Shown: in pieces, positions 2,347 to 24,514 of the stretch
How positions within the stretch are numbered: position 1 is the stretch's first letter
Layout: every line of letters begins with the position of its first letter
Source: a bacterium
Lineage (GTDB): Bacteria; Patescibacteriota; CPR2; UBA1875; JAJYID01
Assembly (NCBI GenBank): GCA_021787535.1
Contig: JAJYLR010000003.1
Coordinates: 56 to 64,055, forward strand
Direction: 5' to 3'
Length of the DNA stretch: 64,000 nucleotides
The notes under the pieces: model-generated
Told to the model about the DNA's origin: nothing
What the model saw: the letters and a program-made list of their open reading frames with translations, nothing else
Database searches by the model: none
Translations under genes and position numbers: made by a program

Positions 2347-4296
2347 GTGAGAATCAGCGACGAGGAACTAAAACAAATCCTAATCGAAAACCATCTTTTA
2401 AGTGAGGTTAAGTTTAATGATTATCTAAGTGAAGCCAAAGAAAGCAAAGTCCCGCTTTACAACCTTTTAATTATGAAAAAGGTCATCTCTGATCGCGACC
2501 TTGTGAAGTTATATGGAAAAGAAACAGGGATTCCCTATATAGATTTGGCTGATTTTCAAATAGATAAAAAAGTTTTAAAGAATCTCCCTGAGAAAATTGC
2601 CAGAAAATATAATACGATTGTTTTCAGTAAAGAAAAAGACGGCAGATTTTCTCTGGCAATGAGCGACCCCGGGGATATTCAGGCGATTCAGTTTATCAAG
2701 AAAAAATTTGGCAGTAACTTAAGAATTTTTATCACGCCTCAGTCAGACATTGACTTGATTCTTGACCAATACAAGGCGGGTTTCTCTGAGGAAATCTCAA
2801 AGGCCATTGAAGAAAATAAGGAGATATCCGTTGAGGAAGAAGAACTTGAGGAAACCGCTACCGCCGATACCGTCAAAGAAATAGTCCAGGAAGCGCCTAT
2901 TGCAAGGGCGGTTAAAATCATTCTGGAATATGCAGTAAAATCGCGGGCCAGTGATGTGCATATAGAACCAAGGGAAACATTTATTCAGATTAGATATCGT
3001 ATTGATGGCGTGCTCAGGGATACGATGACATTACCTAAACAGATTATGTATTCGATAGTTACAAGAGTGAAGATCCTGTCAAATTTAAGGATTGACGAAC
3101 ATAGAGTCCCTCAAGACGGAAGGATTAAGCTCAAACTTGCCGGTAAAAGCATTTCGATCAGAGTCTCTACCCTGCCGGTTATGGACGGTGAAAAGGTGGT
3201 CATGAGGATTTTAGATGAATCAACTAAGGCAGCTTCTCTTGAAGAGCTGGGATTTCGGGGGCTGGCCCTCAAAGTTATCAAAAGGAATCTTCATCGTCCG
3301 CATGGAATGACTCTTGTAACCGGTCCTACGGGATCAGGAAAGTCGACCACTCTTTATAGTCTGCTGACCTTGCTTAATGATATCGGCGTTAACATTTCCA
3401 CAGTAGAGGATCCCGTGGAGTATCGCATCCCCGGTGTTAATCAAACTCAAGTGAATCCGGCTGTGGGAATGACCTTTGCTTCCGGACTTAGAGCACTGCT
3501 GCGCCAAGATCCGGATGTGATTATGGTTGGGGAAATACGAGATCGGGAAACGGCGGAAATGGCTGTACATGCTTCGCTGACCGGCCACGTAGTTTTATCT
3601 ACTTTACACACAAACTCAGCCATCGGATCTTTGCCAAGATTGGAAGATATGGAAATCGAACCTTTCCTAATCGCTTCAACAGTCAACGATGTCATTGGCC
3701 AGCGGCTGGTCAGAAAGCTTTGTCCTGATTGCAAGCAGCAGTATTCTCTGGATCATAAGGTTTTAGAGCAGCTGATTTGCGATTTCGGGCTCAAAGAGGA
3801 ATTTTTAAAAATAGAGAATGTCCAGAAAGAGAAAAAGAAGCTTTTAAATCTCGGGCTGGAAACAAAAGATATTTCTGCTCTCGCCGGTTTCACAGGAAAG
3901 AAGTCAATCGCGCAGATTCTGGCTGAAAAACCAGAGCTCTTAGATAAGGTCTCTGCCAAAACAGGCCGCGAGGTTCGCGCAGAACTTTTTATCGAAACCG
4001 ACCCCAAAACCTGCCGGCTGAGTTTAGGTAAAATCGATGCATATCATCTAGATCTTTACAAAGCGGTTGGGTGTGCGAAATGTGAACAAACCGGCTACAA
4101 AGGACGGCTCGGCATATATGAAGTGGTGGAAGTGACAGATGAAATCGGTTCTTTAATTGTGCGGAAGGCCTCAGAGGATGAACTGTCGGCTGAAGCCAAA
4201 AAAAACGGGTTTACAAATATGTATCAGGACGGTTTTACCAAAGTTTTAAGCGGCATCACATCAATTGAAGAATTAGTAAGAGTAACTCAAGAATAA
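2347..4296 (+). CDS. pilB: Type IV pilus assembly ATPase PilB (GspE family)
   Basis: GTG start with AGGAGG 9 nt upstream. N-terminal T2SSE_N-like domains, Walker A GPTGSGKST, Asp box, His box, and a CPDC...CAKC tetracysteine motif. Confidence 0.9.
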   Translation: MRISDEELKQILIENHLLSEVKFNDYLSEAKESKVPLYNLLIMKKVISDRDLVKLYGKETGIPYIDLADFQIDKKVLKNLPEKIARKYNTIVFSKEKDGRFSLAMSDPGDIQAIQFIKKKFGSNLRIFITPQSDIDLILDQYKAGFSEEISKAIEENKEISVEEEELEETATADTVKEIVQEAPIARAVKIILEYAVKSRASDVHIEPRETFIQIRYRIDGVLRDTMTLPKQIMYSIVTRVKILSNLRIDEHRVPQDGRIKLKLAGKSISIRVSTLPVMDGEKVVMRILDESTKAASLEELGFRGLALKVIKRNLHRPHGMTLVTGPTGSGKSTTLYSLLTLLNDIGVNISTVEDPVEYRIPGVNQTQVNPAVGMTFASGLRALLRQDPDVIMVGEIRDRETAEMAVHASLTGHVVLSTLHTNSAIGSLPRLEDMEIEPFLIASTVNDVIGQRLVRKLCPDCKQQYSLDHKVLEQLICDFGLKEEFLKIENVQKEKKKLLNLGLETKDISALAGFTGKKSIAQILAEKPELLDKVSAKTGREVRAELFIETDPKTCRLSLGKIDAYHLDLYKAVGCAKCEQTGYKGRLGIYEVVEVTDEIGSLIVRKASEDELSAEAKKNGFTNMYQDGFTKVLSGITSIEELVRVTQE

Positions 4297-4417: not shown

Positions 4418-5632
4418 ATGGCTAGATTTAAATACACAGGCAAAGATGGGTCAGGCAATATGACCAAAGGTTATGTAAGCGCCTTTTCAGAAGAAGAGGC
4501 AGCTGTACTTTTAGGAAAAAACAAGATTACCCCCATCGTTATTACCAAGGACAATAATATTTTAGTCCGCATTAAAGATATTCATTTGTTTGACCATCTT
4601 TCATTAACCGATAAAATGATGTTTTGCGAGGAATTATCTACTCTCATTAACGCCGGTGTTCCGCTTGCCCAGTCAATAAGCATTATTAAAGAACAGACTC
4701 AAAAGGGAACGATGAAAAAAATCGCTGCCAATCTTCTGGGAGATATAGAAGGGGGCCAGTCGCTCTCGGGGGCGCTTGAAAAACAAGGGAGGTTTTTCTC
4801 TCCGGTGTTTGTGAATATGGTGAAAACCGGTGAAACGAGCGGAACGCTGGACGAAACTTTACGGGATTTAGCTGTGCAAACAGAAAAAGATCATGATCTT
4901 GTCTCGAAGATCAGGGGAGCTATGACTTATCCCGCTGTGATTTTGGTTGTTATGACCGGGGCTATCATCTTTCTTATGGTCAAGGTTGTCCCGGCTATCT
5001 CCGGTCTCTTCGATGAGCTTGGCGCTACGCTTCCTTTGACCACGCGGATTATGATAGCTGCAAGCCGGATCATGGTGCATGACGGCATTTTTCTGGCCAT
5101 CGGCGCGATAGCGGTGATCGCGGGAATATACTTTGCTTTGACCAGGGTTGCGCCTATCCAAAAAAGTTTTCATGCGGCCATTTTAAAAGCCCCGATTATA
5201 GGTAAAATTTCCTTAAGGTTTAATCTGGCTCGATTTTCAAGGACTTTGGGATCGCTCCTTGGAAGCGGTGTGAGTGTCTTGGAGGCACTGGAAATTGTTT
5301 CTCATTCAACCAAAAACGTTATATTTTCAAATGAGATAGAACAAGTCAAAGAAAGAGTAAAAAACGGCGCGCCGCTTGCGGAACCGCTGAAACAGTCTAA
5401 GATTTTCCCGGTCATGGTCTCTCAAATGATCGGCGTTGGAGAAGAAACAGGCAATCTTGACAAAATGCTGATCAAAGTAGCCGAGTTTTATGAGAGGCAG
5501 ATTGAAAGCTTTACCAAAAATCTTTCAAGCATCATTGAGCCGATTATTATGCTCATTGTCGGCGTTGCTGTCGGTTTTATTATTGTTTCTATTATTACTC
5601 CGATTTATCAAGCTACTCAGAACATTAAGTAA
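4418..5632 (+). CDS. pilC: Type IV pilus inner-membrane platform protein PilC (GspF family)
   Basis: About 400 aa with two GspF-like repeats and three TM segments, immediately downstream of pilB. Confidence 0.85.
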   Translation: MARFKYTGKDGSGNMTKGYVSAFSEEEAAVLLGKNKITPIVITKDNNILVRIKDIHLFDHLSLTDKMMFCEELSTLINAGVPLAQSISIIKEQTQKGTMKKIAANLLGDIEGGQSLSGALEKQGRFFSPVFVNMVKTGETSGTLDETLRDLAVQTEKDHDLVSKIRGAMTYPAVILVVMTGAIIFLMVKVVPAISGLFDELGATLPLTTRIMIAASRIMVHDGIFLAIGAIAVIAGIYFALTRVAPIQKSFHAAILKAPIIGKISLRFNLARFSRTLGSLLGSGVSVLEALEIVSHSTKNVIFSNEIEQVKERVKNGAPLAEPLKQSKIFPVMVSQMIGVGEETGNLDKMLIKVAEFYERQIESFTKNLSSIIEPIIMLIVGVAVGFIIVSIITPIYQATQNIK

Positions 5633-7266: not shown

Positions 7267-8524
7267 CAAGAAATTTTCAATTTTCAATTTTCAATTTTCA
7301 ATGTCCCTGATTTTGCGGCCGCTTAGAAATAGGCAGCTTTTGCCAAGCCGCCAGGGATCAATCTTGGTTCTATTTATTATTGTTCTGTCTGTCATGACTA
7401 CGATCGTTCTGGCCGTTTCGGGGCTTGTTTTAAATAACCGGATTGGAGTTGAGCGGACTTATCAGAAAGACAAAGCTTTAAATATTGCCGAGGCGGGGAT
7501 ACAAAAAGCGCTGTGGGAACTAAAGGGTCATAACCCATCCTATACCGGAGAAACGGGTAATACTTACATTGCGGGCGGGGAATTTGATGTTACAGTCACT
7601 CAAATTGATGCGAACAACGATTACATTACATCAACAGCTTATGTTCCCTCGAAAGCCAATCCTAAATACAAAAAAGCGATCAAAGTTAAAATATCTGATA
7701 CGCCGGTTACTACAAATCCGGCCTTTAGCTACGCTATTCAGGCGGGAGCAGGAGGTATCGATGTGGGCGGATCGAGCGAGGTACATGGCAGTCTTTATTC
7801 TAATGGTGCAATCTCTGTATCAGGCGCATCAGCAACAGTAAATGATCCCGGAGATGCTTGGGCAGTCACAACTATTACCGATCCCAAAGGCGGAATCAAA
7901 GGCACTAAAACGCAAGGAGCCCAGCCGGTAGCTTTGCCGACTATTGACTTGAACCAATGGCGGTCTTTGGCCCAAGCTGGCGGGACCATTACCGGCGACT
8001 ATTCTCCGCCTGCGACCGGTAGTTACACCAATTTTGGACCAAAAGAAATTACGGGGAATTTTTCAATGTCCGGATCAAATCAAAAAATGAATCTAATGGG
8101 GCCTTTGTATATCCACGGCAACCTAAATATTAGCGGTGGCGAATGGAAACTTGATGATTCCTTCGGGTCCAATGGCACGATAGTTTTGGTCGACGGCCAA
8201 ATCAGTATTACCGGAGGCGACTTTCATGGCAATTCCAGCGGATCTTATATTTTATTTATTTCTACTAGTACCGCTAACACTAAAGACAGCGGTTCTGCAA
8301 TATATTATAGAGGCAATGCTAATGGTGAAAAGCTGGCTCTTTATGCATATAATGGAGCGATGACGTTGGCAGGTTCCGGCGAAATTATCGCAATGACCGG
8401 ACAAACCTTGTTTTTAAACGGCAGCGGAGAGATACACTATGACAGCGGCCTGAAGTCCGAACAGTTTGCCGGCGGCCCCGGCGGGACTTGGGTTGTGAAA
8501 GAATGGCAGGAGATATCGCCCTGA
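7259..8524 (+). CDS. PilX-like large minor pilin (PilX N-terminal domain)
   Basis: GTG start after AGGAGG. RQGSILVLFIIVLSVMTTIVLAVSGL resembles PilX_N. The C-terminal region is rich in G, S and T. Confidence 0.55.
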   Translation: MTSKKFSIFNFQFSMSLILRPLRNRQLLPSRQGSILVLFIIVLSVMTTIVLAVSGLVLNNRIGVERTYQKDKALNIAEAGIQKALWELKGHNPSYTGETGNTYIAGGEFDVTVTQIDANNDYITSTAYVPSKANPKYKKAIKVKISDTPVTTNPAFSYAIQAGAGGIDVGGSSEVHGSLYSNGAISVSGASATVNDPGDAWAVTTITDPKGGIKGTKTQGAQPVALPTIDLNQWRSLAQAGGTITGDYSPPATGSYTNFGPKEITGNFSMSGSNQKMNLMGPLYIHGNLNISGGEWKLDDSFGSNGTIVLVDGQISITGGDFHGNSSGSYILFISTSTANTKDSGSAIYYRGNANGEKLALYAYNGAMTLAGSGEIIAMTGQTLFLNGSGEIHYDSGLKSEQFAGGPGGTWVVKEWQEISP

Positions 8525-11633: not shown

Positions 11634-12869
11634 ATGAATGCAGTCAAAACACAGAGAGGCATCGGTCTAGAGCATTATCAGGGTATTATTGATGATTCCC
11701 TTTTTGATGAGGTTGTTGGTCTGGCCAGGCGGCTCAAGGATGTTCGGGTTTGCCATATAAACGCCACTTCATACGGCGGAGGCGTAGCAGAAATTCTTCA
11801 AAAAGAAATTCCTCTGGCAAAAGGAATGGGTCTTCAGTTTGACTGGAAAACAGTTTCCGCTGAACCGGGATTTTTTGATGTAACCAAAAAAATACACAAT
11901 GGGCTTCAAGGGGCAGATGTGAAAATTTCCGAGCGCGAATGGCAGATATATCAAAGCTGCAATATCGATCAGGTGAAGCGTATTAACCCTAGCGATTATG
12001 ACGTTTTCTTTATTCACGATCCTCAGCCGGCTGAGATCATCGGCTGCATCGGCAAAAACGGCGCCAAGTGGGTCTGGCGATGCCATATCGATACTGATGA
12101 GCCAAACCGGGCGATTGCCGATTATTTCCTGAAGTTTTTAAATTTATATGATGCGTCTATATTCACTATGAAAGATTACGTCTTAAAAGGCATGAAAAAC
12201 GATATTTTTATTATTGAACCGGCCATCGATCCGCTTGCTATAAAAAATCGCTGCTTATCACACAAAGAAGCTGAAGAACTGGTGAGGGGTTTTCATATTG
12301 ATACGAGCAGGCCGCTTGTCACCCAGGTGTCGCGCTTTGATCCCTGGAAAGATCCGATTGGCGTAGTTGATGCCTACCGAGCAGCTAAAAAGGAAATGCC
12401 TGAGCTGCAGCTTGCCATGATCGGTTCCATGGCCGATGATGATCCGGAAGGGCAAGAAATTTATAATCAGCTAAAAGAGTATGCAGGCGAAAATCAAGAT
12501 ATTCATATTCTTACCAACCATGATGCGCTACACGACATCGAAGTCAACGCTTTCCAGACTTATTCGGATGTTATAATCCAGAAATCCGTCAAAGAAGGTT
12601 TTGGGCTGACGGTTTCCGAAGCGCTCTGGAAAGAAACGCCGGTTATAGGCGGCAACGTCGGCGGGATACCGACTCAGATTCAAGATGGCAAGACCGGATT
12701 CCTCGTAAATAATTCGCTAGAATGCGCCGAAAAGATCGTTTATTTAGTTAAAAATAAAAAGATTGGCGAAAAAATGGGAAAACTTGGCAAAGAGGATGTC
12801 CGGAAAAAATTTCTCTTACCCCGGCTTCTGCGAGATGAGCTAAAGCTGATAGAAAAGCTAGTCCACTAA
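11634..12869 (+). CDS. GT4 family glycosyltransferase (trehalose synthase TreT-like)
   Basis: 411 aa. The C-terminal half carries EGFGLTVSEALWKETPVIGGNVGGIP, a GT-B nucleotide-sugar binding motif. Overall layout resembles the TreT/GT4 clade. Confidence 0.55.
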   Translation: MNAVKTQRGIGLEHYQGIIDDSLFDEVVGLARRLKDVRVCHINATSYGGGVAEILQKEIPLAKGMGLQFDWKTVSAEPGFFDVTKKIHNGLQGADVKISEREWQIYQSCNIDQVKRINPSDYDVFFIHDPQPAEIIGCIGKNGAKWVWRCHIDTDEPNRAIADYFLKFLNLYDASIFTMKDYVLKGMKNDIFIIEPAIDPLAIKNRCLSHKEAEELVRGFHIDTSRPLVTQVSRFDPWKDPIGVVDAYRAAKKEMPELQLAMIGSMADDDPEGQEIYNQLKEYAGENQDIHILTNHDALHDIEVNAFQTYSDVIIQKSVKEGFGLTVSEALWKETPVIGGNVGGIPTQIQDGKTGFLVNNSLECAEKIVYLVKNKKIGEKMGKLGKEDVRKKFLLPRLLRDELKLIEKLVH

Positions 12870-13230
12870 TTTGACTTTTAGCTTTATATTGGTTAAATTT
12901 TAATTAAATGTTTGGAAATTTTGCTAGAAAAGCAAGTTCATTGAATCGAAGAAACAAGAGTTGGCAAAGAATCTATTCAATCAAAAAGTTTCGGTTCAGC
13001 CGCTCGAGAGGTCTGAACCGGGCCTGACACCTCCGCGTCGCCCGCTTATACTTCATCTGTTCCTTCAAACACCATTTTGGGTTTTTAGGGTAACATAACA
13101 GACAGGCATAAGCGGGCATTTTTTATTTTATAATTTTTCCGCAAAATTTTTATAAGATTTACAGATGTAAACCTCCTTTAAAAGAGCATAATAAGGATAC
13201 TTTAAATCATAAGAGAAGGAGGTGATCAAG

Positions 13231-13638
13231 ATGGCGGAAGAAGAAAAAAAAGATAAGAAAAAGGAAGAGGAGGGCAAAGAGTTTCATGCTCACGCTTATG
13301 TTGAGAGGCGTTATGGCCAAACAGCGGCAAGCGCCAGCTGGCAGCAGTGGATAAACGGCATTTTAGGCCTCTGGCTGATCGTAGTTGCTTTAATCGGGCT
13401 CTCAACCAGTGCAACCACACTTGTGGTCACTGGTATTGTTATTGCTATAGTCGGATTCTGGGGCGCGGCTATGAGAACTGCGCTATGGCAGCAATGGGTG
13501 AATGCGATTTTGGGACTTTGGACGATAGCAATTCCATTTATTGGCTTGTCAGATATTGCTTTGGGCTGGACGGTGGGTATTACGGGACTTGTTATCGCTG
13601 TTCTCGGCTTCTGGGCGACCGGACGGGAGAGCGCATAA
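13231..13638 (+). CDS. SPW-repeat membrane protein
   Basis: Two copies of W(Q)QW(I/V)N(G/A)ILGLW...IGLS TM repeats. AGGAGG lies 8 nt upstream of the ATG at 13231. Confidence 0.55.
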   Translation: MAEEEKKDKKKEEEGKEFHAHAYVERRYGQTAASASWQQWINGILGLWLIVVALIGLSTSATTLVVTGIVIAIVGFWGAAMRTALWQQWVNAILGLWTIAIPFIGLSDIALGWTVGITGLVIAVLGFWATGRESA

Positions 13639-13777
13639 AGTACTGGTCCTATAAAAGATAAAAGAGACCGGCTCTACGGCGCTCTTTTATCTTAGATTGA
13701 TAGACTTGTACCCTATGTTTTTAGCTTATTTCTTCTAATTTTTGAAAAAAATCGAACCTTGAGGAGGATACTTATTA

Positions 13778-13968
13778 TGCGTGGACTAGGGTTTGAGTAT
13801 GTGAGATGTCCGAAGTGCTTTAAAATGCTTTTTGAGGAAGAATCGGCGAAGGGCAAGATTACCTGCCGGTATTGCAAAACCGTTATAAACATCCGCGACA
13901 TCGATTGGAAGAGCCATGCCGTGAAAGGAAAGGAGAGTGGCAGCGATGAAATACGGGGAGGCAATTAA
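13778..13968 (+). CDS. Small zinc-ribbon protein (CPKC...CRYC), paralog of 14950..15183
   Basis: MRGLGFEYVRCPKCFKMLFEE...CRYCKTVINIRDIDW. GAGGAGG RBS upstream. Confidence 0.5.
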
Positions 13969-14140
13969 AAATCTGGAAAACATTCCTGCAACTAACCGTC
14001 TGGGCTATCTGGAGAATAAAATCTGTCCGCTTTGTCCGAGCACTGTAAATTGCGAAAAGGGAAAGTTAGAGCATCTTCAGTGCTTGGTGCAGCTTGCGCA
14101 GAATTTTACTCCCATGTTCGACTATGGGCGGCCGCGATAG
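13946..14140 (+). CDS. Small Cys-containing protein (hypothetical), translationally coupled to the upstream zinc-ribbon gene
   Basis: ATGA overlap with the upstream gene. Contains CPLCPSTVNC. Its stop codon sits inside a GGGCGGCCGC-gata-GCGGCCGCCC palindrome. Confidence 0.4.
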   Translation: MKYGEAIKNLENIPATNRLGYLENKICPLCPSTVNCEKGKLEHLQCLVQLAQNFTPMFDYGRPR

Positions 14141-14224
14141 CGGCCGCCCCCACAATATCAATTTGAAATAAAAAATTTAAACATTGGCCGATTAAAAGAT
14201 TTTTATTTTTCCTATCATAGAAAT

Positions 14225-14899
14225 ATGGAAAAAGTTTTAATATTTGCATTGATTGGAACAGTCTGTTTTGTCCTTGGCGTTTCAGCCGCATCGGGGCATC
14301 CCGAATTTTTTATTCAAAGCTTAGCAGCCACGGGAACGTTAAGCTTGGCTTCTGTGACAGCGCTCGCATTTTTTCGCAGTTCTAAAATGGCGCGCGACAG
14401 ATTCCATGAAGCTGTCTTGATTTCTATTGATACTGACGGCACTTTTGAAATCAGAAATGATTGGCATAAAAAGATTAAGGTACTTGATGTCAGGCAGCAT
14501 CTGGCTACTATTACCCCCGCGCGAAGTTTACATAGCTGGAGACAGGGCAGAAACCTCTCTTTTGAAGAAAAATACTCCGGCAACAAAGGAGTCTATTTTC
14601 GCAGCAGGCAAAAGCTAAACAAGCGTTTTTTCTTGAAATCAGCCAGGAAGGTTCCAAAAACAAAAATCAGATCGAGAATAATGGAGAATGAGCTGGAAGT
14701 TGCTCCGGGCGAGAGGGTATTTATGGATAGGTCGCATACTCATCAGCTGCCGCTGGGAAGCGAGTGCGCCCTCGGTTATGTTTGCTATAGCTTAGTCAAA
14801 TACCGCGACATGGAAGATTCGATGCAGAAAGAAATTCTCTTGAAACACCGCTATTCTCTCTATATCGATCCGCGGGAGAGGTGGATCAAAATAGGGTAG
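14225..14899 (+). CDS. Hypothetical protein with N-terminal TM/signal
   Basis: 224-aa ORF with no recognised motif. Confidence 0.45.
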   Translation: MEKVLIFALIGTVCFVLGVSAASGHPEFFIQSLAATGTLSLASVTALAFFRSSKMARDRFHEAVLISIDTDGTFEIRNDWHKKIKVLDVRQHLATITPARSLHSWRQGRNLSFEEKYSGNKGVYFRSRQKLNKRFFLKSARKVPKTKIRSRIMENELEVAPGERVFMDRSHTHQLPLGSECALGYVCYSLVKYRDMEDSMQKEILLKHRYSLYIDPRERWIKIG

Positions 14900-14949
14900 T
14901 GTTTGTGAAAGTTGCCGAAGAAACTAATCGGCCGGAGTGATAGGTTATC

Positions 14950-15183
14950 ATGAGCTGGACGGGTTTACATGGAGCAGCTTTATTAAAAGCGATAAAAAGC
15001 GAACTTGAGGGGGATCTGATGCATGGTTATACCAAATGTCCGAGTTGCGGAAAATTTCTTTTTGAGGAAGATTTTCAAGGAGAGTACGAGAAAAAATGCA
15101 GATGGTGCGGTATCGGTCTGAATCCCCGCAATCTAAATTGGCGGGGAGCAGCTGACATAGTATCAGGTAAAAAAGGAAAATAG
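14950..15183 (+). CDS. Small zinc-ribbon protein (CPSC...CRWC), paralog of 13778..13968
   Basis: YTKCPSCGKFLFEE...CRWCGIGLNPRNLNW aligns with the first copy. Followed by a GGGGCGGC-tata-GGCCGCCCC palindrome and a T-run. Confidence 0.5.
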   Translation: MSWTGLHGAALLKAIKSELEGDLMHGYTKCPSCGKFLFEEDFQGEYEKKCRWCGIGLNPRNLNWRGAADIVSGKKGK

Positions 15184-15292
15184 TTTTGGCAACAGAAAGA
15201 GCAGTTGTTTTGAGTATAACCGGCATAAGCTGAAGCTGTCTCCCCTGAAAGTTTTGAGGGGCGGCTATAGGCCGCCCCTTTATCTTATATCT

Positions 15293-15913
15293 TTATACTG
15301 TAATCTGCGAAAACCCTCCCTCTTGATAGACATTGAGCCAGAGGCAGAGAGCTTCTTCTGCATCAAAAATCTTGAGGTGTTCCTGAGATATATTTACAGG
15401 TATTTTCCGGATCGTTTCTTTCAACCAGTTACTCAGCAGAATCGGCTCATATATAGCGTCTTTCTCTTCATAACAAAAGGAGGTTCTGCAATTTCGGGGA
15501 CGGACGTCATATATTGTGCAGGATTGTTTGTAAAGAAAAGGGCATAGATCAACGCGATCAAATACTTCCAAATTAGAGCTCATAAGGCCGATATCCTCTA
15601 CGAAATTTGAAAGGCATTGTCTCATCTTTTTTCTCACCCATCTCTCAGCGCCGCCGCTAAGCTTTTCAATTTCCTGGAGAATAAACATGAACTCTACAGC
15701 CGAAAGCTCGAAATATGGGTGGCAGCAAGTATCGCAGCCATTTCGGCAGGCGATTTTTTTCTGTCTTTTCCGAAAATGATTCACCCACTCCTCATCAAAA
15801 ACCCTGTAAGCGGCAATGAGATGGTCTGCGCCTTGTTCGACGAGTCTTTTAGTCTGACTGTTTAACTGATGAAGCCGTCTTGCTTTACGTCTTTTCGTCA
15901 ACATAAGGTTCAC
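15293..15913 (-). CDS. YkgJ-family CxxCxxCC putative Zn/Fe-chelating protein (UPF0153)
   Basis: ACRNGCDTCCHPYF plus a downstream CRTSFC. Confidence 0.55.
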   Translation of the reverse strand: MNLMLTKRRKARRLHQLNSQTKRLVEQGADHLIAAYRVFDEEWVNHFRKRQKKIACRNGCDTCCHPYFELSAVEFMFILQEIEKLSGGAERWVRKKMRQCLSNFVEDIGLMSSNLEVFDRVDLCPFLYKQSCTIYDVRPRNCRTSFCYEEKDAIYEPILLSNWLKETIRKIPVNISQEHLKIFDAEEALCLWLNVYQEGGFSQITV

Positions 15914-16075
15914 CCTTCCTGAGATGTAAGGATTTGAGGGAAATTGTTAAGTATTATAGCATAAAAAGTGATTATGTTCTATTGTTTTTGAAGTGGAGTC
16001 GGTTGCTTTGGCAAAAGAAAAAGGCGGCCCTGGCAGGCCGCCTTGATCAAGTTTCTAATTTCGGGACAGTGGGGA

Positions 16076-16594
16076 CTAGCCCACTTTGATGTAGCGAGGA
16101 GGCAGCAGCAACTCATTTTCGCTGATAGTTGCTATCTCCCTTACCGTATTCTCATTGGTTAGGCCAAGGTTCAGGCCGGTGATGAGGGTGAAGCTCTCGT
16201 CATGCTTCCATGGCAGACCCGAGCCCGAGAGGATGTAATCTTCTCCGATGAGCACTGCTCCTGGCCACCTTTCCTTCATGTCTGCGCTTTGAAAGCTTGA
16301 GACATGGCCTTCGGCTATGTGTTCGCCGAGTCGGCAGCCCTTTTCTTGGCAGTGATGCCGGTACTTGACTGCGAGGTCAGGTGTCAGCTCTCCGAAGAGA
16401 ACTGTTGCGAGAGGGACCTTGGCTATAGCACTCTCGACCGTGTAGATAGAGCCGTAAAAGCCAGTCTTCGGCGTGTCCTTGCCCTCATCTGACGTGTTGT
16501 AAGCCAATAGTGCTAGCTCGGCCACAGATCTCATTGTATCGAGAGCGTGCACGAGACTGTATGAACCAACTGTGTCAGTAAGCAAATTGTTCAC
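16076..16594 (-). CDS. Hypothetical protein (GC-rich islet)
   Basis: 172-aa ORF. Local GC is noticeably higher than the surroundings. Confidence 0.45.
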   Translation of the reverse strand: MNNLLTDTVGSYSLVHALDTMRSVAELALLAYNTSDEGKDTPKTGFYGSIYTVESAIAKVPLATVLFGELTPDLAVKYRHHCQEKGCRLGEHIAEGHVSSFQSADMKERWPGAVLIGEDYILSGSGLPWKHDESFTLITGLNLGLTNENTVREIATISENELLLPPRYIKVG

Positions 16595-16600
16595 CTCCCT

Positions 16601-17023
16601 TCAGTTAGTCGTGTCCGGATACTCGGACATTTGGACTGCATTTTCCTCTCCAAGCATGAAAATCTCGTCGTATCCATCTTCGTGTCGTAGGAAAAATACG
16701 AACATGTTAGCCACTATCAATTTGGCTGGTTTCGATCCAACACCATAAACATCATTCATACAATCTATGGCGAGTTCATTTCCTTCCAGGAGTGCCTTCT
16801 TGAATTTGTCGAAGTCAGCAGGACTTACGATAATCTGCCATCCTCCCGAAGGGCCAACATCAATGACGGTATGGTCTTCTCGCTTCCAGATGATGAGAGA
16901 TTTCTTTTGAACCTCTCGGCCTTCACTGTCAGTTAGTGCTATGTCTTGTAGGAGCATCTGAAGTCCTTTCTTAGAATGTACACGATTGATCATAAAACCA
17001 AACTTAATGGTAAATATTAACAT
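16601..17023 (-). CDS. Hypothetical protein (GC-rich islet)
   Basis: 140-aa ORF co-directional with the previous one. Confidence 0.45.
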   Translation of the reverse strand: MLIFTIKFGFMINRVHSKKGLQMLLQDIALTDSEGREVQKKSLIIWKREDHTVIDVGPSGGWQIIVSPADFDKFKKALLEGNELAIDCMNDVYGVGSKPAKLIVANMFVFFLRHEDGYDEIFMLGEENAVQMSEYPDTTN

Positions 17024-17063
17024 AAAAATATTAATTTGTCAAAGATTTTTGCGAAAAGGGTAT

Positions 17064-17092
17064 TGACAACTGTATTCGGTATTGCTATATTT
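17064..17092 (+). promoter_or_regulatory. Sigma70 promoter of the hrcA operon (TTGACA-17-TATATT)
   Basis: TTGACA at 17064-17069 and TATATT at 17087-17092, immediately 5' of CIRCE. Confidence 0.6.
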
Positions 17093-17095
17093 TAT

Positions 17096-17122
17096 TAGCA
17101 CTCGGACACCGAGAGTGCCAGA
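17096..17122 (+). promoter_or_regulatory. CIRCE operator (HrcA binding site)
   Basis: TTAGCACTC-ggacaccga-GAGTGCcAg matches the CIRCE consensus TTAGCACTC-N9-GAGTGCTAA. Confidence 0.8.
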
Positions 17123-17170
17123 AATCACATCTTGGTGTAGTATGCAGTATACCGTATTGAGTATTGAGGG

Positions 17171-17251
17171 GATTCTGGACAAGCCAGAATGACAAAGGGA
17201 AAGGGATTCCTCCGCTTGCCCCGTCGGACGGGGTTGTCGGTCGGAATGACA
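17171..17251. repeat. Two repeat units (GATTCTGGACAAGCCAGAATGACA + GGATTCCTCCGC...GTCGGTCGGAATGACA) between CIRCE and the hrcA start
   Basis: Hairpin ATTCTGG-acaag-CCAGAAT followed by GACA. The second unit closely resembles the 3' half of the murD insert. Confidence 0.65.
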
Positions 17252-17258
17252 AAAACCT

Positions 17259-17969
17259 ATGACATCACGCAGAGAAGCGATATTAGAAGCGATTGTTCGT
17301 GAATACGTCGAAACGGCGGAGCCGGTTGGCTCTTTAACGCTTGTTCGGAAGTACGCTTTTCCTTACTCCTCAGCCACGATTCGTGCTGAGATGGCCATGC
17401 TGGAGGAAAATGGCTTCATCATGCAACCGCACACTTCAGCGGGAAGAATTCCGACCGAAAAGGGTTATAAATATTTCGTCAAAATGATTGAGAATGAAGA
17501 AAAAAGCCTGGCCGGTCGTGAGGAGGATATATTAAAAAAGCGCATTGAAGCTATGCATGCTCAATACGAGCGTAAGTTTGACGCCGCCGCGCTGGCACTG
17601 GCCGAGATGACTAGAAATGTAGCGCTTTCTACGCTTGGCCAGGAAGTGTATTCGCATGGTTTGGCAAACCTTTTCCGCCAGCCGGAGTTTATAGATACGG
17701 ATCGCGTGCTGGGGATAGCCGACATGATTGACAACATGAGCACGCTGTTAAACGAATTACCCAGAAGCAAGAATTTCATGGTTCTGGTTGGCTCCGAGAC
17801 GCCTATTGGCAAGTCAGCCGACGCATCACTTGTCATATCGAGAGTAGACACTCCCTACGGGGTTCGCGGATATTTAGGTGTCTTGGGTCCCACCAGGATG
17901 AGTTATGAAAGGGTAATTCCATTAGTTAAACGCACCAGAGATTTGCTGGAGAATGATTTAAATAGGTAG
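17259..17969 (+). CDS. hrcA: Heat-inducible transcription repressor HrcA (short form)
   Basis: N-terminal winged helix ILEAIVREYVETAEPVGSLTL and C-terminal GVLGPTRMSYERVIPLV. CIRCE lies upstream. Confidence 0.8.
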   Translation: MTSRREAILEAIVREYVETAEPVGSLTLVRKYAFPYSSATIRAEMAMLEENGFIMQPHTSAGRIPTEKGYKYFVKMIENEEKSLAGREEDILKKRIEAMHAQYERKFDAAALALAEMTRNVALSTLGQEVYSHGLANLFRQPEFIDTDRVLGIADMIDNMSTLLNELPRSKNFMVLVGSETPIGKSADASLVISRVDTPYGVRGYLGVLGPTRMSYERVIPLVKRTRDLLENDLNR

Positions 17970-18053
17970 CTTTACAAGGGTCCGACCCTTCTAGGGACGA
18001 ATTCTTTGCGAGGGTCGGGCCCTTGTAAAACGGGAGAACAAATCACCTTCTCC

Positions 18054-18087
18054 TGTCATTCCCGCTCAGGCGGGAATCCAGACAAGC
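18054..18087. repeat. Repeat unit TGTCATTCCCGCTCAGGCGGGAATCCAGACAAG
   Basis: Same termini with a different hairpin stem. Lies upstream of grpE. Confidence 0.5.
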
Positions 18088-18141
18088 AATGTTAAATAGT
18101 TAATTATAGAATTTTAAATAAATTTAGAAAGATCAAGAAGT

Positions 18142-18729
18142 ATGAAAGAGAAAGACAAGAAAGCCAAAGGCAAAAAGGAAGACCAACTGGATTCCCGCCG
18201 GAGTTTATCCGACGAAGCTAAAGCGTGGGCGGGTGGGAATGACAAGAAAGAGGTCAGGAATGAAAATATAGAAGCCGAGCATGACAAGGGTCAGACCCTT
18301 GCAATGGAAAATGTTGCTTTGAAGAAGATGCTGCAGCGGGCACAGGCGGATTTTATAAATTACCGCCAGCGTGCAGAGCGGGAGAAGTCAGAAATGGTCG
18401 ATTACGGCAAGCTGGAGACGATTAAGGAGCTTCTGCCGGTATTCGACAACTTCGAACGGGCCAGAAACCATTTCCCGAAGGAGCTGGAGAAGAATGATTG
18501 GGCGCAGGGGATGCTCGCGGTAGAGAAGCAGTTTGTCCAGAAAATGGAAGAAATGGGGATTAAGAGAATCCCGACAGTCGGCGAGCAATTTGATCCAAAT
18601 TTACATGAGGCAATACACATGGAGCCGGCAAAAGGCAAGAAATCGAATGAGATTACCTGCGAATACGAACCGGGATACATATATAAAGATAAAGTTTTAA
18701 GGTATGCAAAGGTAAAGTTGGCAAAATGA
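18142..18729 (+). CDS. grpE: Nucleotide exchange factor GrpE
   Basis: Coiled-coil N-terminus, LLPVFDNFERA motif and a C-terminal beta domain. Confidence 0.8.
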   Translation: MKEKDKKAKGKKEDQLDSRRSLSDEAKAWAGGNDKKEVRNENIEAEHDKGQTLAMENVALKKMLQRAQADFINYRQRAEREKSEMVDYGKLETIKELLPVFDNFERARNHFPKELEKNDWAQGMLAVEKQFVQKMEEMGIKRIPTVGEQFDPNLHEAIHMEPAKGKKSNEITCEYEPGYIYKDKVLRYAKVKLAK

Positions 18730-19412
18730 AGTTTGAACTAAAAAGGTACAATAAAGGTCCTAGAAAAGATTATCGCAATATAACTAATGAGGAGCTGATT
18801 ACTGATTTGCGGGATGTCGCTAATAGGTTACAGAAAGAGTCAGTCACTCATGGAGAATACGACCAGAATGGCAGATTTAATAGTCATATTTTTGGTAGAA
18901 GGTTTGGAGGTTGGTTGAACGCACTTGAAGAAGCTGGTCTTCAAAAAACAAGAAATTATCAAATAGCTGATGAGGAAGCATTTCAAAATTTAGAGAATGT
19001 TTGGATGAAACTGGGGCGACAACCTAGGCGCGAAGATTTACATAGACCACTTTCAAAGTATAGCGGAGCATTCTATGAATATCGATTTGGTGCATGGAGC
19101 AAGGCGCTGGAAAAGTTTATTAATTATATTAACAAGGCAGAACTCAGTACATTAGAGAGATCCGAAAATACAACAAGTAATCCGAGTATTCAACATAAAA
19201 CAAATAGGAATATAAATTTGCAGTTACGTTTTATTGTCATGAAAAGAGATAATTTTAAATGTCAAAAATGTGGTCGATCGCCAGCAACTGACTCGAGCAT
19301 AATTCTACATGTTGATCATAAAAAAGCATGGGCGAATGGTGGTGAAACAGTATTGGAAAACTTGCAGACACTTTGTTCGAAGTGCAACATAGGTAAAAGC
19401 GATTTGGAGTAA
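18726..19412 (+). CDS. Free-standing HNH endonuclease with two homing-endonuclease-associated repeats
   Basis: C-terminal HNH signature: CQKCG...LHVDHKKAWANGGETVLENLQTLCSKCN. N-terminal repeats read RFGGWLNALEEAGL and YRFGAWSKALEKF. ATGA overlap with the grpE stop. Confidence 0.75.
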   Translation: MKFELKRYNKGPRKDYRNITNEELITDLRDVANRLQKESVTHGEYDQNGRFNSHIFGRRFGGWLNALEEAGLQKTRNYQIADEEAFQNLENVWMKLGRQPRREDLHRPLSKYSGAFYEYRFGAWSKALEKFINYINKAELSTLERSENTTSNPSIQHKTNRNINLQLRFIVMKRDNFKCQKCGRSPATDSSIILHVDHKKAWANGGETVLENLQTLCSKCNIGKSDLE

Positions 19413-19446
19413 TTAAAAACGTTAAGGTTAAAGAAGGAGAAATAAA

Positions 19447-19593
19447 ATGGGGAATGAATCAGATTATACATGTGGAAATTGTGGGAGGAATTATCAAATC
19501 AACACAGAGGGTGAACGGATTCAGCCATGCCCTTATTGTGGTGCAAATGAAATGGTAAAGACATTGGAAGGTAAAGTTATTAAGAAAAAATAA
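19447..19593 (+). CDS. 48-aa zinc-ribbon protein (CGNC...CPYC)
   Basis: MGNESDYTCGNCGRNYQINTEGERIQPCPYCGANEMVKTLEGKVIKKK. Its RBS/start GGAGAAATAAAATGGG repeats the dnaK start context. The track missed it because it is shorter than 60 aa. Confidence 0.4.
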   Translation: MGNESDYTCGNCGRNYQINTEGERIQPCPYCGANEMVKTLEGKVIKKK

Positions 19594-19614
19594 TTAAGAA
19601 AGGGGAGAAATAAA

Positions 19615-21567
19615 ATGGGAAAAATTATCGGAATTGACCTTGGTACAACCAACTCAGCCATGGCGGTGATGGAAGGCGGAAAGGCCACCATTATCCCGAA
19701 CGCTGAAGGCGGAAGGACCACACCGTCCATCGTGGCGATGACCAAGGACGGCGCCACGAACCAGACGGTTCATGGCGGCGAGAGGCTAGTCGGACAAGCG
19801 GCCAAAAGGCAAGCAGTTATAAATCATGAGAATACAATCTTCTCAGTGAAGCGTCTGATCGGGCGAAAGTTTGACGATGCGGAGGTGAAGCGCGACATCG
19901 AGCTCATGCCGTACAAAATTGAAAAAGGAAACGGTGGAGTGAAGGTGAAGATGGGCGATAAGGATTACTCACCGGCTGAGATTTCGGCAATGATTTTACA
20001 GAAGCTGAAGGCTGATGCGGAAAGCTATCTGGGCGGTAGCGTGACTGAAGCGGTTATCACCGTGCCGGCCTACTTCAACGACTCACAAAGACAGGCCACC
20101 AAAGATGCAGGAAAGATTGCGGGCTTGGAAGTAAAGAGAATCATCAACGAACCGACCGCAGCCGCGCTGGCTTACGGATTAGACAAAAAGAAGGAAGAGA
20201 AGGTTGCCGTTTATGACCTTGGCGGAGGTACGTTTGACATCTCTATCCTTGAGCTTGGTGATGGCGTCTTTGAAGTAAAGTCAACCAATGGTGACACTCA
20301 TCTTGGCGGTGACGACTTCGACCAGCACTTGATCGATGAGCTGGCTGAAGAGTTTAAGAAAGACCAAGGCGTTGATCTGAAGAAAGATACAGCTGCGCTA
20401 CAGAGACTTAAAGAAGCAGCCGAGAAGGCGAAAATTGAGCTTTCTTCTGCCATGGAGACGGAGATTAACATCCCGTTTATTACGGCTGACGCATCCGGTC
20501 CTAAGCATTTGACCATGAAGTTAAGCCGGGCAAAGTTCGAGTCCATCGTTGGCGAACTAGTCGACAAGACATTAAAGCCGGTTGAAAAGGCTTTGAAGGA
20601 TGCCGGAATTAAAAAGGAAGATGTGAACGAGGTGATCCTGGTCGGCGGTATGACGAGAATGCCGCTGGTGCAGAAGAAGGTGAAGGAGTACTTCGGCAAA
20701 GATCCGCTGAAAGGCGTGAATCCTGACGAGGTGGTGGCGATCGGCGCTGCTATCCAGGGTGGTGTGCTTGGCGGAGAGGTGAAGGATGTTCTTCTTCTCG
20801 ATGTCACTCCACTTTCACTTGGTATCGAGACTCTTGGCGGTGTTTCCACCAGATTAATCGAGAGAAATACGACTATTCCGACGAGCGCTTCGCAGGTGTT
20901 CTCAACGGCGGCTGACAATCAGACTTCTGTAGAGATTAACGTGCTGCAGGGTGAGCGTGAATTTGCCAAAGACAACAAATCGCTTGGACGATTTATACTT
21001 GATGGTATTCCACCGGCACCTCGAGGCATTCCTCAGGTTGAGGTAACCTTTGATATCGATGCCAACGGTATCGTCAATGTTTCTGCTAAGGATAAGGCAA
21101 GCGGGAAATCGCAGCACATAACCATCCAATCTTCATCCGGACTTTCAGAGGAAGAGATCGAGAAGATGAGAAAAGACGCTGAGGCGCATGCCGAGGAAGA
21201 TAAGAAGCAGAAAGAGCTGGTTGAGATCCGAAATATGGCTGACTCCTTAATTTACACTTCGGAAAAGACCGTCAAAGATGCCGGAGACAAGGCAACAGAC
21301 GAGGAGAAGAAGGATGTCGAGGATAAGATTAAAGAGCTTCGTGAAGTGAAGGATAAGGATGACAAGGATGCGATTCAGAAAGCCTATGATGAACTGTCTG
21401 AGGTCATTCAAAAGATTGGTGCAAAGATGTACGAATCTCAAGCCGGCGCTGAAGGCGGTGAATCTACCGAAGAACCAAAGAAAGACGAAGGACCAGTTGA
21501 GGGTGAGGTTGTAGACGAAGATAAGAAAGATCCTTCATCAGATTCAGGACAAGCTGAAGAGAAATAA
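19615..21567 (+). CDS. dnaK: Chaperone DnaK (Hsp70)
   Basis: [18 protein letters not shown] and the canonical substrate-binding domain. Acidic C-terminal tail. Confidence 0.95.
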
Positions 21568-23395: not shown

Positions 23396-24514
23396 ATGGC
23401 AAGTAAAGATTATTATGAAATACTAGGCGTCAAGAAGGATGCCGGAGTGGACGAAATCAAGAAGGCTTATCGCAAGCTGGCTTTAAAGTATCATCCGGAT
23501 AAAGGCGGCGGAGCCGAAGCTGAGTCGAAATTTAAAGAGATTAACGAGGCCTACCAGATTCTTTCCGACCCCGAGAAGCGCCAGGCGTATGATCAGTTTG
23601 GTTCCACCCAGCCGGGTGGTGGGTTTAATTGGCAGCAGTACCAGCAGCAGGCCGGGCAAGGTTATGACGGTGGTTTTGAAGGGTTCGACTTTTCGGATCT
23701 TGGAGGATTTGGCGATATATTTGAAACATTTTTCGGCGGTGGCGGAGGCAGGTCTCGCGCGCGAAAAGGCGCTGACCTCGAAACCGTCATTACTGTAGAT
23801 TTCAAAGAGGCGGTTTTCGGTGCGGAAACTTTCATCAAGCTAAACAAACATTTTGAGTGCGAAAAGTGCGGCGGGTCAGGCGCAGAAAAAGGCACGGAAA
23901 TGGTGGAGTGCAAGGTTTGCCATGGCGCCGGCAAGACCCAGACGGCCAGGCGTACAATTCTCGGCACGTTTGCCCAAACTGCCATCTGCGAGGAGTGCCA
24001 AGGGCAGGGTAAGGTGCCAAAAGTCGCCTGCTCGGTCTGCAAGGGTAAGGGAATTGTTAAAACTGAAAAAGAGGTTAAGATCAAAATCCCGGCCGGTGTT
24101 GACGATGGGCAAACTATCCGGCTCTCAGGATTGGGCGAGGCCATGAAGGGCGGTGCAACCGGCGATCTCTATGTCCACATCCGGGTGCGGCCGAATGATA
24201 AGATTAAACGAGAAGGATACAATCTCATGAATACGGCCGTCATTTCATTTGCCGAAGCGGCCATGGGCACGGTCATCGAAGTGCCGACCATTGATGGTAA
24301 TGTAAAACTGAAGATTCCGGCAGGCACCCAAAGTGAAAAGGTCTTTAAATTATCTAGCCGCGGTGTGCCGCATCTTGGTGGAGGTAAGCGTGGTGATCAT
24401 CTGGTGACCATCAAAGTTCGCGTGCCGGAAAAATTAACGAAGAAACAAAAAGAACTCTTGGAAGAATTTCAGAAAGAAGAGGGTAAAGAAAAGCCCAAAT
24501 TCTGGCCGTTCTAA
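23396..24514 (+). CDS. dnaJ: Chaperone DnaJ
   Basis: J-domain with HPD (KYHPDKG), a G/F region, and four CxxCxGxG zinc-finger repeats. Confidence 0.95.

Follow-up and report, generated by a model that had tools for sequence, protein, structure and literature searches.

What brings a free-standing HNH nuclease gene between grpE and dnaK, and what does the repeated dnaK start signal beside it record? The question is raised by positions 18,142 to 21,567 of a 64,000-nucleotide stretch of contig JAJYLR010000003.1 (assembly GCA_021787535.1; Patescibacteriota, CPR2), which was analysed as a whole and is called the window here. The conserved flanks are grpE (18142..18729; Pfam GrpE 8.8e-41, with the match reaching the profile end) and dnaK (19615..21567; Pfam HSP70 2e-267), both on the + strand. 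The 885-nt spacer between them holds two further + strand genes, one for an HNH endonuclease of 228 amino acids (18726..19412) and one for a zinc-ribbon protein of 48 amino acids (19447..19593; hereafter Zn48). An initial annotation had placed both open reading frames (ORFs) correctly; it treated them as one module and read a repeated 16-mer as a target-site duplication, or as a start signal captured in a homing event aimed at the 5' end of dnaK. We regard it as fairly probable that the spacer is a lineage-wide hypervariable cargo slot in an HrcA/CIRCE heat-shock operon of a WS5-like bacterium, with turnover driven by recombination and with the HNH gene as a passenger.

Cargo between grpE and dnaK in related genomes

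Scans of genome contigs and metagenome contigs, together with a search for GrpE homologues and their context, yielded nine further loci (L021 to L025, L027, L035, L036 and L040) with GrpE proteins 75-91% identical; one member of the GrpE cluster is named candidate division WS5. The gene set between grpE and dnaK differed in all ten genomes, window included. L021 carried a C39-like peptidase gene, L022 genes for a membrane protein, a zinc-ribbon protein of 58 amino acids and another protein of 58 amino acids, L023 genes for 190, 130 and 63 amino acids, L025 a single gene for 214 amino acids and L036 genes for 222 and 115 amino acids. In L024 the cargo consisted of PDC-S11/DUF4268 (PADLOC 3.6e-126) and a coiled-coil zinc-ribbon protein of 122 amino acids, in L035 of a coiled-coil zinc-ribbon protein of 115 amino acids, and in L040 of one of 128 amino acids together with a protein of 121 amino acids. 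L027 held genes for 160, 136, 168 amino acids and more, with no dnaK within the fetched locus. PDC-S11 was the only defence candidate, present in one of the ten slots, and the coiled-coil zinc-ribbon protein was the sole cargo family common to several loci (three of ten).

The HNH gene was missing from all nine relatives, each of which held other cargo at this position, and no empty grpE-dnaK site was found among the ten loci. The insert-less alleles that the initial annotation expected are thus replaced by a general hotspot, and the outcome it had named as fatal, one and the same module in every relative with a repeat explained by generic ribosome-binding-site likeness, was not encountered. 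Its view that the HNH gene is foreign to the operon agrees both with this distribution and with base composition: the G+C content of the spacer is 0.357 (flanks 0.47-0.52, window 0.432), and in nine of the ten genomes cargo G+C was 0.31-0.36, below the 0.42-0.53 of the flanks. Only L027 departs from this, with 0.42, a value taken over an arbitrary stretch as dnaK does not follow there. Where dnaK follows directly, the slot measures ~0.5-1.4 kb and holds one to three small genes. Related populations with other cargo (L026 and L028) co-occur in the metagenome from which the window's ENA contig derives. Syntenic flanks with unrelated content in relatives are what is found at core-gene-flanked integration hotspots, and we are confident that the two genes of the window are accessory cargo in a lineage-wide variable slot. 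No literature describing this slot, or linking the grpE-dnaK spacer with homing endonucleases, was found.

The recurrent coiled-coil zinc-ribbon proteins (L024 5048-5416, L035 4105-4452, L040 3995-4381) have 115-128 amino acids, a C-terminal zinc ribbon, the N-terminus MGID(I/V)K.IGKVLQEAGK and 58-64% identity. This family may have been established in the operon earlier than the other cargo.

The duplicated dnaK start region and the dnaK 5' tract

The 16-mer GGAGAAATAAAATGGG occurs exactly at 19436-19451 and 19604-19619; the initial annotation had recognised both exact copies, with coordinates each one base off. No further site within two mismatches exists in the 64-kb window, the nearest one having three mismatches, and none of 100 shuffles contained two matches. 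Similarity between the two copies extends over 19 nt ungapped and over ~27 nt with one gap. The left copy (19428..19454, + strand; TTAAAGAAGGAGAAATAAAATGGGGAA) is a dnaK-type translation initiation region that now drives Zn48, and the right copy (19596..19622, + strand) is the initiation region of the resident dnaK, identical to the dnaK start of L040. When compared with relatives, the left copy was identical to the dnaK start of L025 at 24 of 24 positions (27 nt at 96% by BLAST) and to that of L023 at 22 of 22 positions, through ATGGGGAA. The same 27-nt match at 96% was obtained with L026, a contig assembled from the metagenome that also yielded the window's ENA contig.

Start regions were also scored over 24 positions against nine dnaK start regions. 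The Zn48 start reached 23 of 24, and across the ten loci half of the 20 cargo starts scored at least 18, whereas none of 76 control ORFs exceeded 17 even when each was given its best candidate start. The matches to dnaK starts of relatives, taken with these scores, show that the duplication is homologous and not a generic likeness of ribosome-binding sites; here the reading of the repeat as a duplicated dnaK start region held, no other gene start in the window being close. Convergence of two strong ribosome-binding sites in a highly expressed operon might still be invoked, as cargo starts generally show AAGGAG with an A-rich spacer and both initiation regions are unstructured, as in efficient starts. 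We hold this to be improbable: the identity to the L025 dnaK start covers positions upstream of the Shine-Dalgarno sequence as well as the first codons (ATGGGG/ATGGGA), and both the control ORFs and the three mismatches of the nearest other 16-mer site speak against it.

Both copies lie to the right of the HNH gene and bracket only the body of the zinc-ribbon gene, so that the HNH gene is without a flanking repeat. A direct repeat on both sides, as in a target-site duplication of the HNH element, is therefore not what is found; to our knowledge, homing is not expected to produce target-site duplications in any case. We are confident that what is duplicated is the initiation region of dnaK and that the duplication belongs with the insertion of the zinc-ribbon gene. 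Paired start regions were also seen in L022, where AGGAGAAAAAATG occurs twice and a dnaK-like start precedes the third cargo gene, and in L024.

A separate element was noticed just upstream of the dnaK Shine-Dalgarno sequence in L023 (5170-5200), L024 (5443-5473) and L036 (5036-5066). It is an exact 31-nt hairpin-forming sequence (GACCCGCCTACGCTAAAGCTACGGACGGGCA) found in three genomes with differing cargo, and is not in the window.

The gene started by the left copy encodes a CxxC...CxxC protein whose Pfam zinc-ribbon matches were all below threshold. An exhaustive HMMER search over 1.84 billion cluster representatives returned a handful of homologues of 40-47 amino acids with the pattern CGNCG...G..IQPCPxCG..EMVK, 41-59% identical to the query by HMMER and 43-55% in a MAFFT alignment. 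As homologues of the same size share a common pattern, Zn48 belongs to a genuine family of small proteins; its ORF is not a by-product. It had no PADLOC match. In a tblastn search of all fetched loci Zn48 matched only L039, a 626-nt contig in which the homologue adjoins an apparent IS200/RAYT-like transposase fragment (by inspection of the translation), with neither a dnaK nor an HNH gene nearby; the loci of HNH relatives gave no match. The pairing of HNH and Zn48 in one module, as put forward initially, was rejected since no locus of an HNH relative encodes a Zn48 homologue and the one homologue with context lies elsewhere. The two genes are independent passengers.

The second footprint lies within dnaK itself. 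The first 131 nt (19615..19745, + strand) are 100% identical to L021 and L025 despite different cargo, within a zone of ~300 nt in which synonymous divergence is 3-4 times lower; L022 first differs at nt 96. When synonymous codon differences were counted at identical amino acids in five full-length dnaK genes, they amounted to 9.3% in codons 1-50, 14.6% in codons 51-100 and 26-50% elsewhere, including blocks with 100% amino acid identity. L023 and L036 show many synonymous changes in the same stretch, and constraint alone thus does not explain the identity of the others. RNA structure at the initiation regions and the dnaK 5' end was not significant (z-scores +1.4, +0.5, +0.95 and -1.3), by which an RNA structure or thermosensor was rejected as the cause of conservation, and an Rfam scan of the window returned tRNAs only. 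Homogenisation was equal in genomes without the HNH gene. The highest G+C content of the region is also located here, at 19600-19900 (0.555-0.56 against ~0.47-0.52 deeper in dnaK), coinciding with the low-divergence tract.

At the other flank, 27-35 of the final 150 nt of grpE differ from each relative, which is ordinary divergence, and homogenisation is consequently one-sided. The AT-rich grpE 3' end was considered as a co-conversion tract and rejected, as all relatives have the same protein tail and diverge in the ordinary way. Rearranged copies of this region were found in relatives. In L023 (~3941-3957) a second grpE 3' end (GGTAAAGTTGGCAAAGTAA) lies 45 nt past the true stop, directly before the first cargo gene. 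In L027-type genomes a second TTGACA/TATATT promoter with a CIRCE operator is fused to a grpE 3' fragment ~3.4 kb after grpE, and the operon is split there, with a fragment beginning ...HEAIHMEPAKGKKS (L027 ~7440-7564; L029 and L030 ~5200-5335). Promoter and operator seem to have been duplicated in these genomes, presumably so that the heat-shock regulation of dnaK survived a large insertion.

How the cargo is replaced can be proposed from these footprints. The leader and the 5' end of dnaK would serve as anchor for recombination that exchanges the cargo, with the incoming segment inserting at the start codon of dnaK or immediately behind it. The previous dnaK initiation region would thereby pass to the newcomer, here Zn48, and the incoming DNA would supply the fresh initiation region that dnaK now uses. 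The HNH gene most likely reached the slot by the same exchange, as a passenger.

An assembly or binning chimera, with cargo mis-joined to grpE and dnaK across the shared identical dnaK tract, could imitate such an arrangement, and two MEGAHIT contigs of one sample do both stop 129 nt into dnaK, as at a branch of the assembly graph. Contigs stopping there are expected if several populations share the tract. The junctions from grpE through the HNH gene and Zn48 into the first 129 nt of dnaK are found inside single contigs in three assemblies; the MEGAHIT contig from ENA covers 12142-19744 of the window and the Logan contig 18663-19633, both at 100% identity. Since the contigs agree in this way, mis-assembly of the junctions is unlikely, and we give the chimera next to no credence. 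The ends of the Logan contig were considered as insertion boundaries and rejected, branch points at single-nucleotide polymorphisms between co-occurring strains being simpler. Just beyond the end of the ENA contig, the DnaK of the window has a unique in-frame insertion of 27 nt (19753-19779; ATNQTVHGG after TKDG), missing from all eight relatives compared. This could be real strain variation or the mark of an assembly join.

The HNH gene and its possible roles

The HNH reading frame starts within the ATGA that holds the grpE stop codon, as the initial annotation described, and encodes the architecture it had recognised. Two stretches match Pfam PF18780 (HNH_repeat) with 90.4 bits (cut-off 26) and the C-terminal part matches PF01844 (HNH) with 43.7 bits (cut-off 21.4); the motif CQKCG...HVDHKKAW...N..TLCSKCN was confirmed. 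All residues of the Cys4 zinc site and of the D-H...N...N beta-beta-alpha-metal (HNH-fold) motif are present. AlphaFold predicted confident domains (predicted local distance difference test, pLDDT, ~85-93) separated by a disordered linker at residues 143-160, and the fold matches were McrA/TagI-like, the HNH domain being of the McrA/Cas9 type. A search of an indexed set of 5.8 billion proteins (E <= 1e-5) returned 3,270 homologues, with Omnitrophica, Kaiserbacteria, Paceibacterota and Methanobacteriaceae among the named sources. In an alignment of 30 homologues D197, H198, N221 and C179 were invariant, and N212, C182, C217 and C220 were at least 90% conserved; the number of N-terminal repeats in the family is two, three or four. 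We are confident that this is an intact gene for a predicted nuclease. Its family is widespread and free-standing, scattered over uncultivated archaea and bacteria, and is large and uncharacterised. The gene adds a member to an established Pfam architecture; for PF18780 the literature search gave a single incidental mention. Conservation in the family also reaches both termini. The N-terminus MKFEL (window 18726-18740) is at least 90% conserved though predicted to be disordered (pLDDT ~36), and the last residues (NIGKSDLE) are conserved as well.

The HNH gene has no clear Shine-Dalgarno sequence by inspection, and its start scores 13 of 24 against the dnaK start regions. Given this and the ATGA overlap, its translation is probably coupled to that of grpE.

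The ratio of nonsynonymous to synonymous substitution rates (dN/dS) against four relatives was 0.03-0.08, with dS saturated at >1.5 for the gene of the window. A functional, long-kept protein with no recent donor among those sampled is implied. Nucleotide homology to the relatives runs exactly from ATG to stop; a mobile unit consisting of the ORF only was rejected as an explanation, because with saturated synonymous sites any flanking homology would be lost anyway. The nearest relatives, with 73-82% amino acid identity, were found in four unrelated neighbourhoods, none of them between grpE and dnaK. In the first, a gene for an XRE-type helix-turn-helix (HTH) protein lies upstream and a gene for 263 amino acids downstream, with an integrase nearby; in the second, the HNH gene precedes a His_Phos_1 gene, and two genes beyond lies an AAA_15/AAA_21 ATPase gene; in the third it follows an NTP_transf_2 gene and a small ORF; and in the fourth it follows an M48 peptidase gene. 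No second copy of the HNH gene or of Zn48 was detected in the window by tblastn.

Details of the XRE-type neighbours were noted separately. In L004 (3781-5483) the XRE-type HTH gene ends 4 nt before the HNH gene, and the 263-amino-acid protein that follows has a weak N-glycosylase/DNA-lyase match (5.5e-5). In L012 (~3940-4000) what reads as an unannotated tail of an XRE-type HTH gene, an apparent remnant, directly precedes the HNH gene. The XRE HTH, HNH and 263-amino-acid genes may form a three-gene module, integrase-adjacent in several contigs.

These data bear on the proposal that HNH and zinc-ribbon genes form one homing module, whose enzyme would cut the 5' end or start of dnaK in genomes lacking the module, repair then copying the module in and duplicating the start signal. 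The protein does have the build of a homing endonuclease, with DNA-binding repeats, a linker and the HNH domain, and its gene stands alone between conserved genes and is missing from relatives. The 5' end of dnaK is unusually homogenised, like a co-conversion tract, and related populations with other cargo (L026, L028) live in the same metagenome. Against these points stand the duplication, which brackets the zinc-ribbon gene only, the fact that the zinc-ribbon gene is never found beside HNH relatives, and the four unrelated contexts of the nearest of these, in which neither site specificity nor the same gene recurring at the same site in different genomes is seen. Genomes without any HNH gene share the homogenisation of dnaK, saturated dS (>1.5) to every sampled relative leaves no recent donor in sight, and a dN/dS of 0.06 is unlike that of a decaying homing gene. 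In the form first suggested, homing directed at dnaK with a target-site duplication left behind is hence unsupported, and we judge the homing module unlikely.

The comparison with phages is similar. Free-standing HNH homing endonuclease genes are known from phages, e.g. mobE of T4 (reviewed in PMC2790892 and PMC2988022). Like these, the gene of the window is a lone nuclease gene, without intron or intein, packed tightly between conserved genes, combines a modular DNA-binding part with an HNH catalytic domain and is patchily present among relatives. Unlike these, it resides in a cellular (WS5-like) genome without a recurrent insertion site and under strong purifying selection, and neither cleavage nor co-conversion is attributable to it. 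No full-length relative was present in 50,697 phage records, and IMG/VR gave HNH-domain matches only, all matches in both collections being below 45% identity. A phage origin of the gene was rejected, as those matches are confined to the HNH domain.

Alternatively, the enzyme might be a host-beneficial defence nuclease, for instance a modification-dependent (Type IV) enzyme resembling McrA. It would need no methylase, and its gene, in a defence-island-like slot, would be switched on together with the heat-shock genes when infection causes stress. This concerns the role of the gene and is compatible with its arrival by hotspot recombination. It is in line with the dN/dS of 0.03-0.08 across very divergent hosts, with the lack of a full-length match in the phage records, with PDC-S11 in the same slot of L024 and with relatives that adjoin XRE-type HTH, integrase, NTP_transf_2 and AAA_15/AAA_21 ATPase genes, neighbourhoods which we take to resemble defence or mobile islands. 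PADLOC gave a match to REase_II (1.8e-9), confined to the HNH domain (residues 153-224), but no full-length model match. Homing endonucleases gave the N-terminal repeats their name, and repeat number ranges from two to four as in modular site readers; nothing ties the repeats to modified bases, and only one of the ten slot cargos contains a recognised defence candidate. With McrA/TagI-type modification-dependent HNH restriction enzymes, sequence similarity is confined to the core of the HNH domain; unlike in those enzymes, the N-terminal domain consists of HNH_repeat helical modules with weak TetR-like HTH similarity and is unrelated. We consider the defence role possible but not probable.

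Most probably the HNH gene is a passenger, selfish or defensive in nature, and homing into dnaK is not demonstrated. Architecture, variable repeat number and scattered free-standing positions favour a selfish, homing-type role, and purifying selection, McrA/TagI-like folds, the neighbourhoods of relatives and PDC-S11 in the same slot favour defence; between the two we cannot decide.

The heat-shock operon and known systems of gene capture

The slot is placed inside a regulated operon. Upstream of hrcA (17259..17969, + strand; Pfam HrcA 3.7e-21), a sigma-70-like promoter (17063..17091, + strand; TTGACA-17-TATATT, TG-extended), proposed from an 11/12 consensus match only, is followed by a CIRCE operator (17095..17121, + strand; TTAGCACTC-N9-GAGTGCCAG) with two mismatches, a predicted HrcA site. 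It is the sole CIRCE match in the window at up to three mismatches, and one of 100 shuffles contained a match. With CIRCE located after the promoter and before hrcA-grpE-dnaK, the genes have the predicted layout of a CIRCE/HrcA heat-shock operon; dnaJ lies further downstream (23396-24514). Between grpE and dnaK no promoter-like or terminator-like site was found on the + strand, and the cargo is probably co-transcribed with the heat-shock genes.

The spacer between hrcA and grpE was observed to be a second variable slot. It contains a gene for a GIY-YIG nuclease-family protein of 96 amino acids in L022 (3514-3804) and L040 (3080-3370), a PTPS/QueD-like gene for 120 amino acids in L021 (3504-3866) and L025 (3067-3429), and in the window (17970-18141) no gene, only palindromes (17971-18029) resembling repetitive extragenic palindromes. 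Short palindromic repeat units (CTGGATTCCCGCC..., ACAAGGGTC.GACCCTTG) occur at 18187-18203, 18280-18306 and 18065-18081 of the window. The first two lie in the grpE N-terminal region and are translated in the variable GrpE tail (LDSRR..., DKGQTLA), and related units are also present in the GrpE of L021 and L024.

Integration hotspots between syntenic core genes are a general concept of comparative genomics. The grpE-dnaK slot resembles them in that two conserved genes flank AT-rich accessory genes which differ among relatives and include defence candidates. It differs from them in lying inside a single regulated heat-shock operon, in having only the dnaK flank homogenised, and in cargo that appears to use the operon's transcription and copies of the dnaK initiation region. 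No integrase was seen near the slot in the ~3.5 kb examined on either side in relatives, which makes exchange through flanking homology plausible. Like integron arrays, the slot contains small ORFs without promoters that follow a fixed promoter and all point the same way, with short repeats at their boundaries. Unlike integrons, it has neither an IntI-type integrase nor attC-like imperfect palindromes, and its boundary repeat is a ribosome-binding and start region. The integrase was lacking both within ~3.5 kb of the slot in relatives and within ~6 kb upstream on the window contig (Pfam), and no conserved palindromic element was found at cassette 3' ends within the fetched flanks. The slot is a variant of the known core-gene-flanked hotspots. 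It is tiny and situated in a CIRCE operon, was occupied in every genome, bears start-region duplications and is homogenised at one flank only.

A stronger proposal would make the junction an integrase-free platform for cassette capture. The dnaK initiation region and the invariant dnaK 5' end, acting as a homology arm, would then form a recurrent insertion and recombination site that serially places selfish or defence genes (HNH, PDC-S11 and others) under HrcA/CIRCE control, to be switched on by proteotoxic or infection stress. We think this rather unlikely in its full form.

Several points weigh against the hypervariable slot with recombination-driven turnover that we favour. Neither a recombination event nor a donor or an empty site has been directly observed, and since no homogenised tract is present in the left flank, at the grpE 3' end, a simple two-arm exchange is not demonstrated. 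Selection acting unrecognised on the mRNA might, in principle, also keep synonymous divergence low at the 5' end of dnaK, and AT-rich cargo with a strong Shine-Dalgarno sequence could account for part of the likeness of cargo starts to dnaK starts. The data are metagenome assemblies whose contigs break inside the identical dnaK tract, so that linkage of the cargo to the part of dnaK past 19744 comes from the metagenome-assembled genome. Finally, the recombination mechanism, the nuclease activity of the HNH protein and the co-transcription of the cargo are inferred from sequence.

The locus is more instructive than the HNH gene alone. It shows that comparative data are needed before a repeated start region beside a nuclease gene is taken for a target-site duplication. 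What the ten loci point to is that an operon of chaperone genes, essential and under tight regulation, puts up with continual replacement of genes at one junction and may even profit from it; the passengers borrow the promoter of the operon together with copied ribosome-binding sites of dnaK. If this is true, the slot would provide a compact natural example of accessory or defence genes gaining stress-responsive expression, a marker locus with conserved flanks and a variable core for strain-level recombination in WS5-like populations, and a source of candidate small proteins and nucleases.

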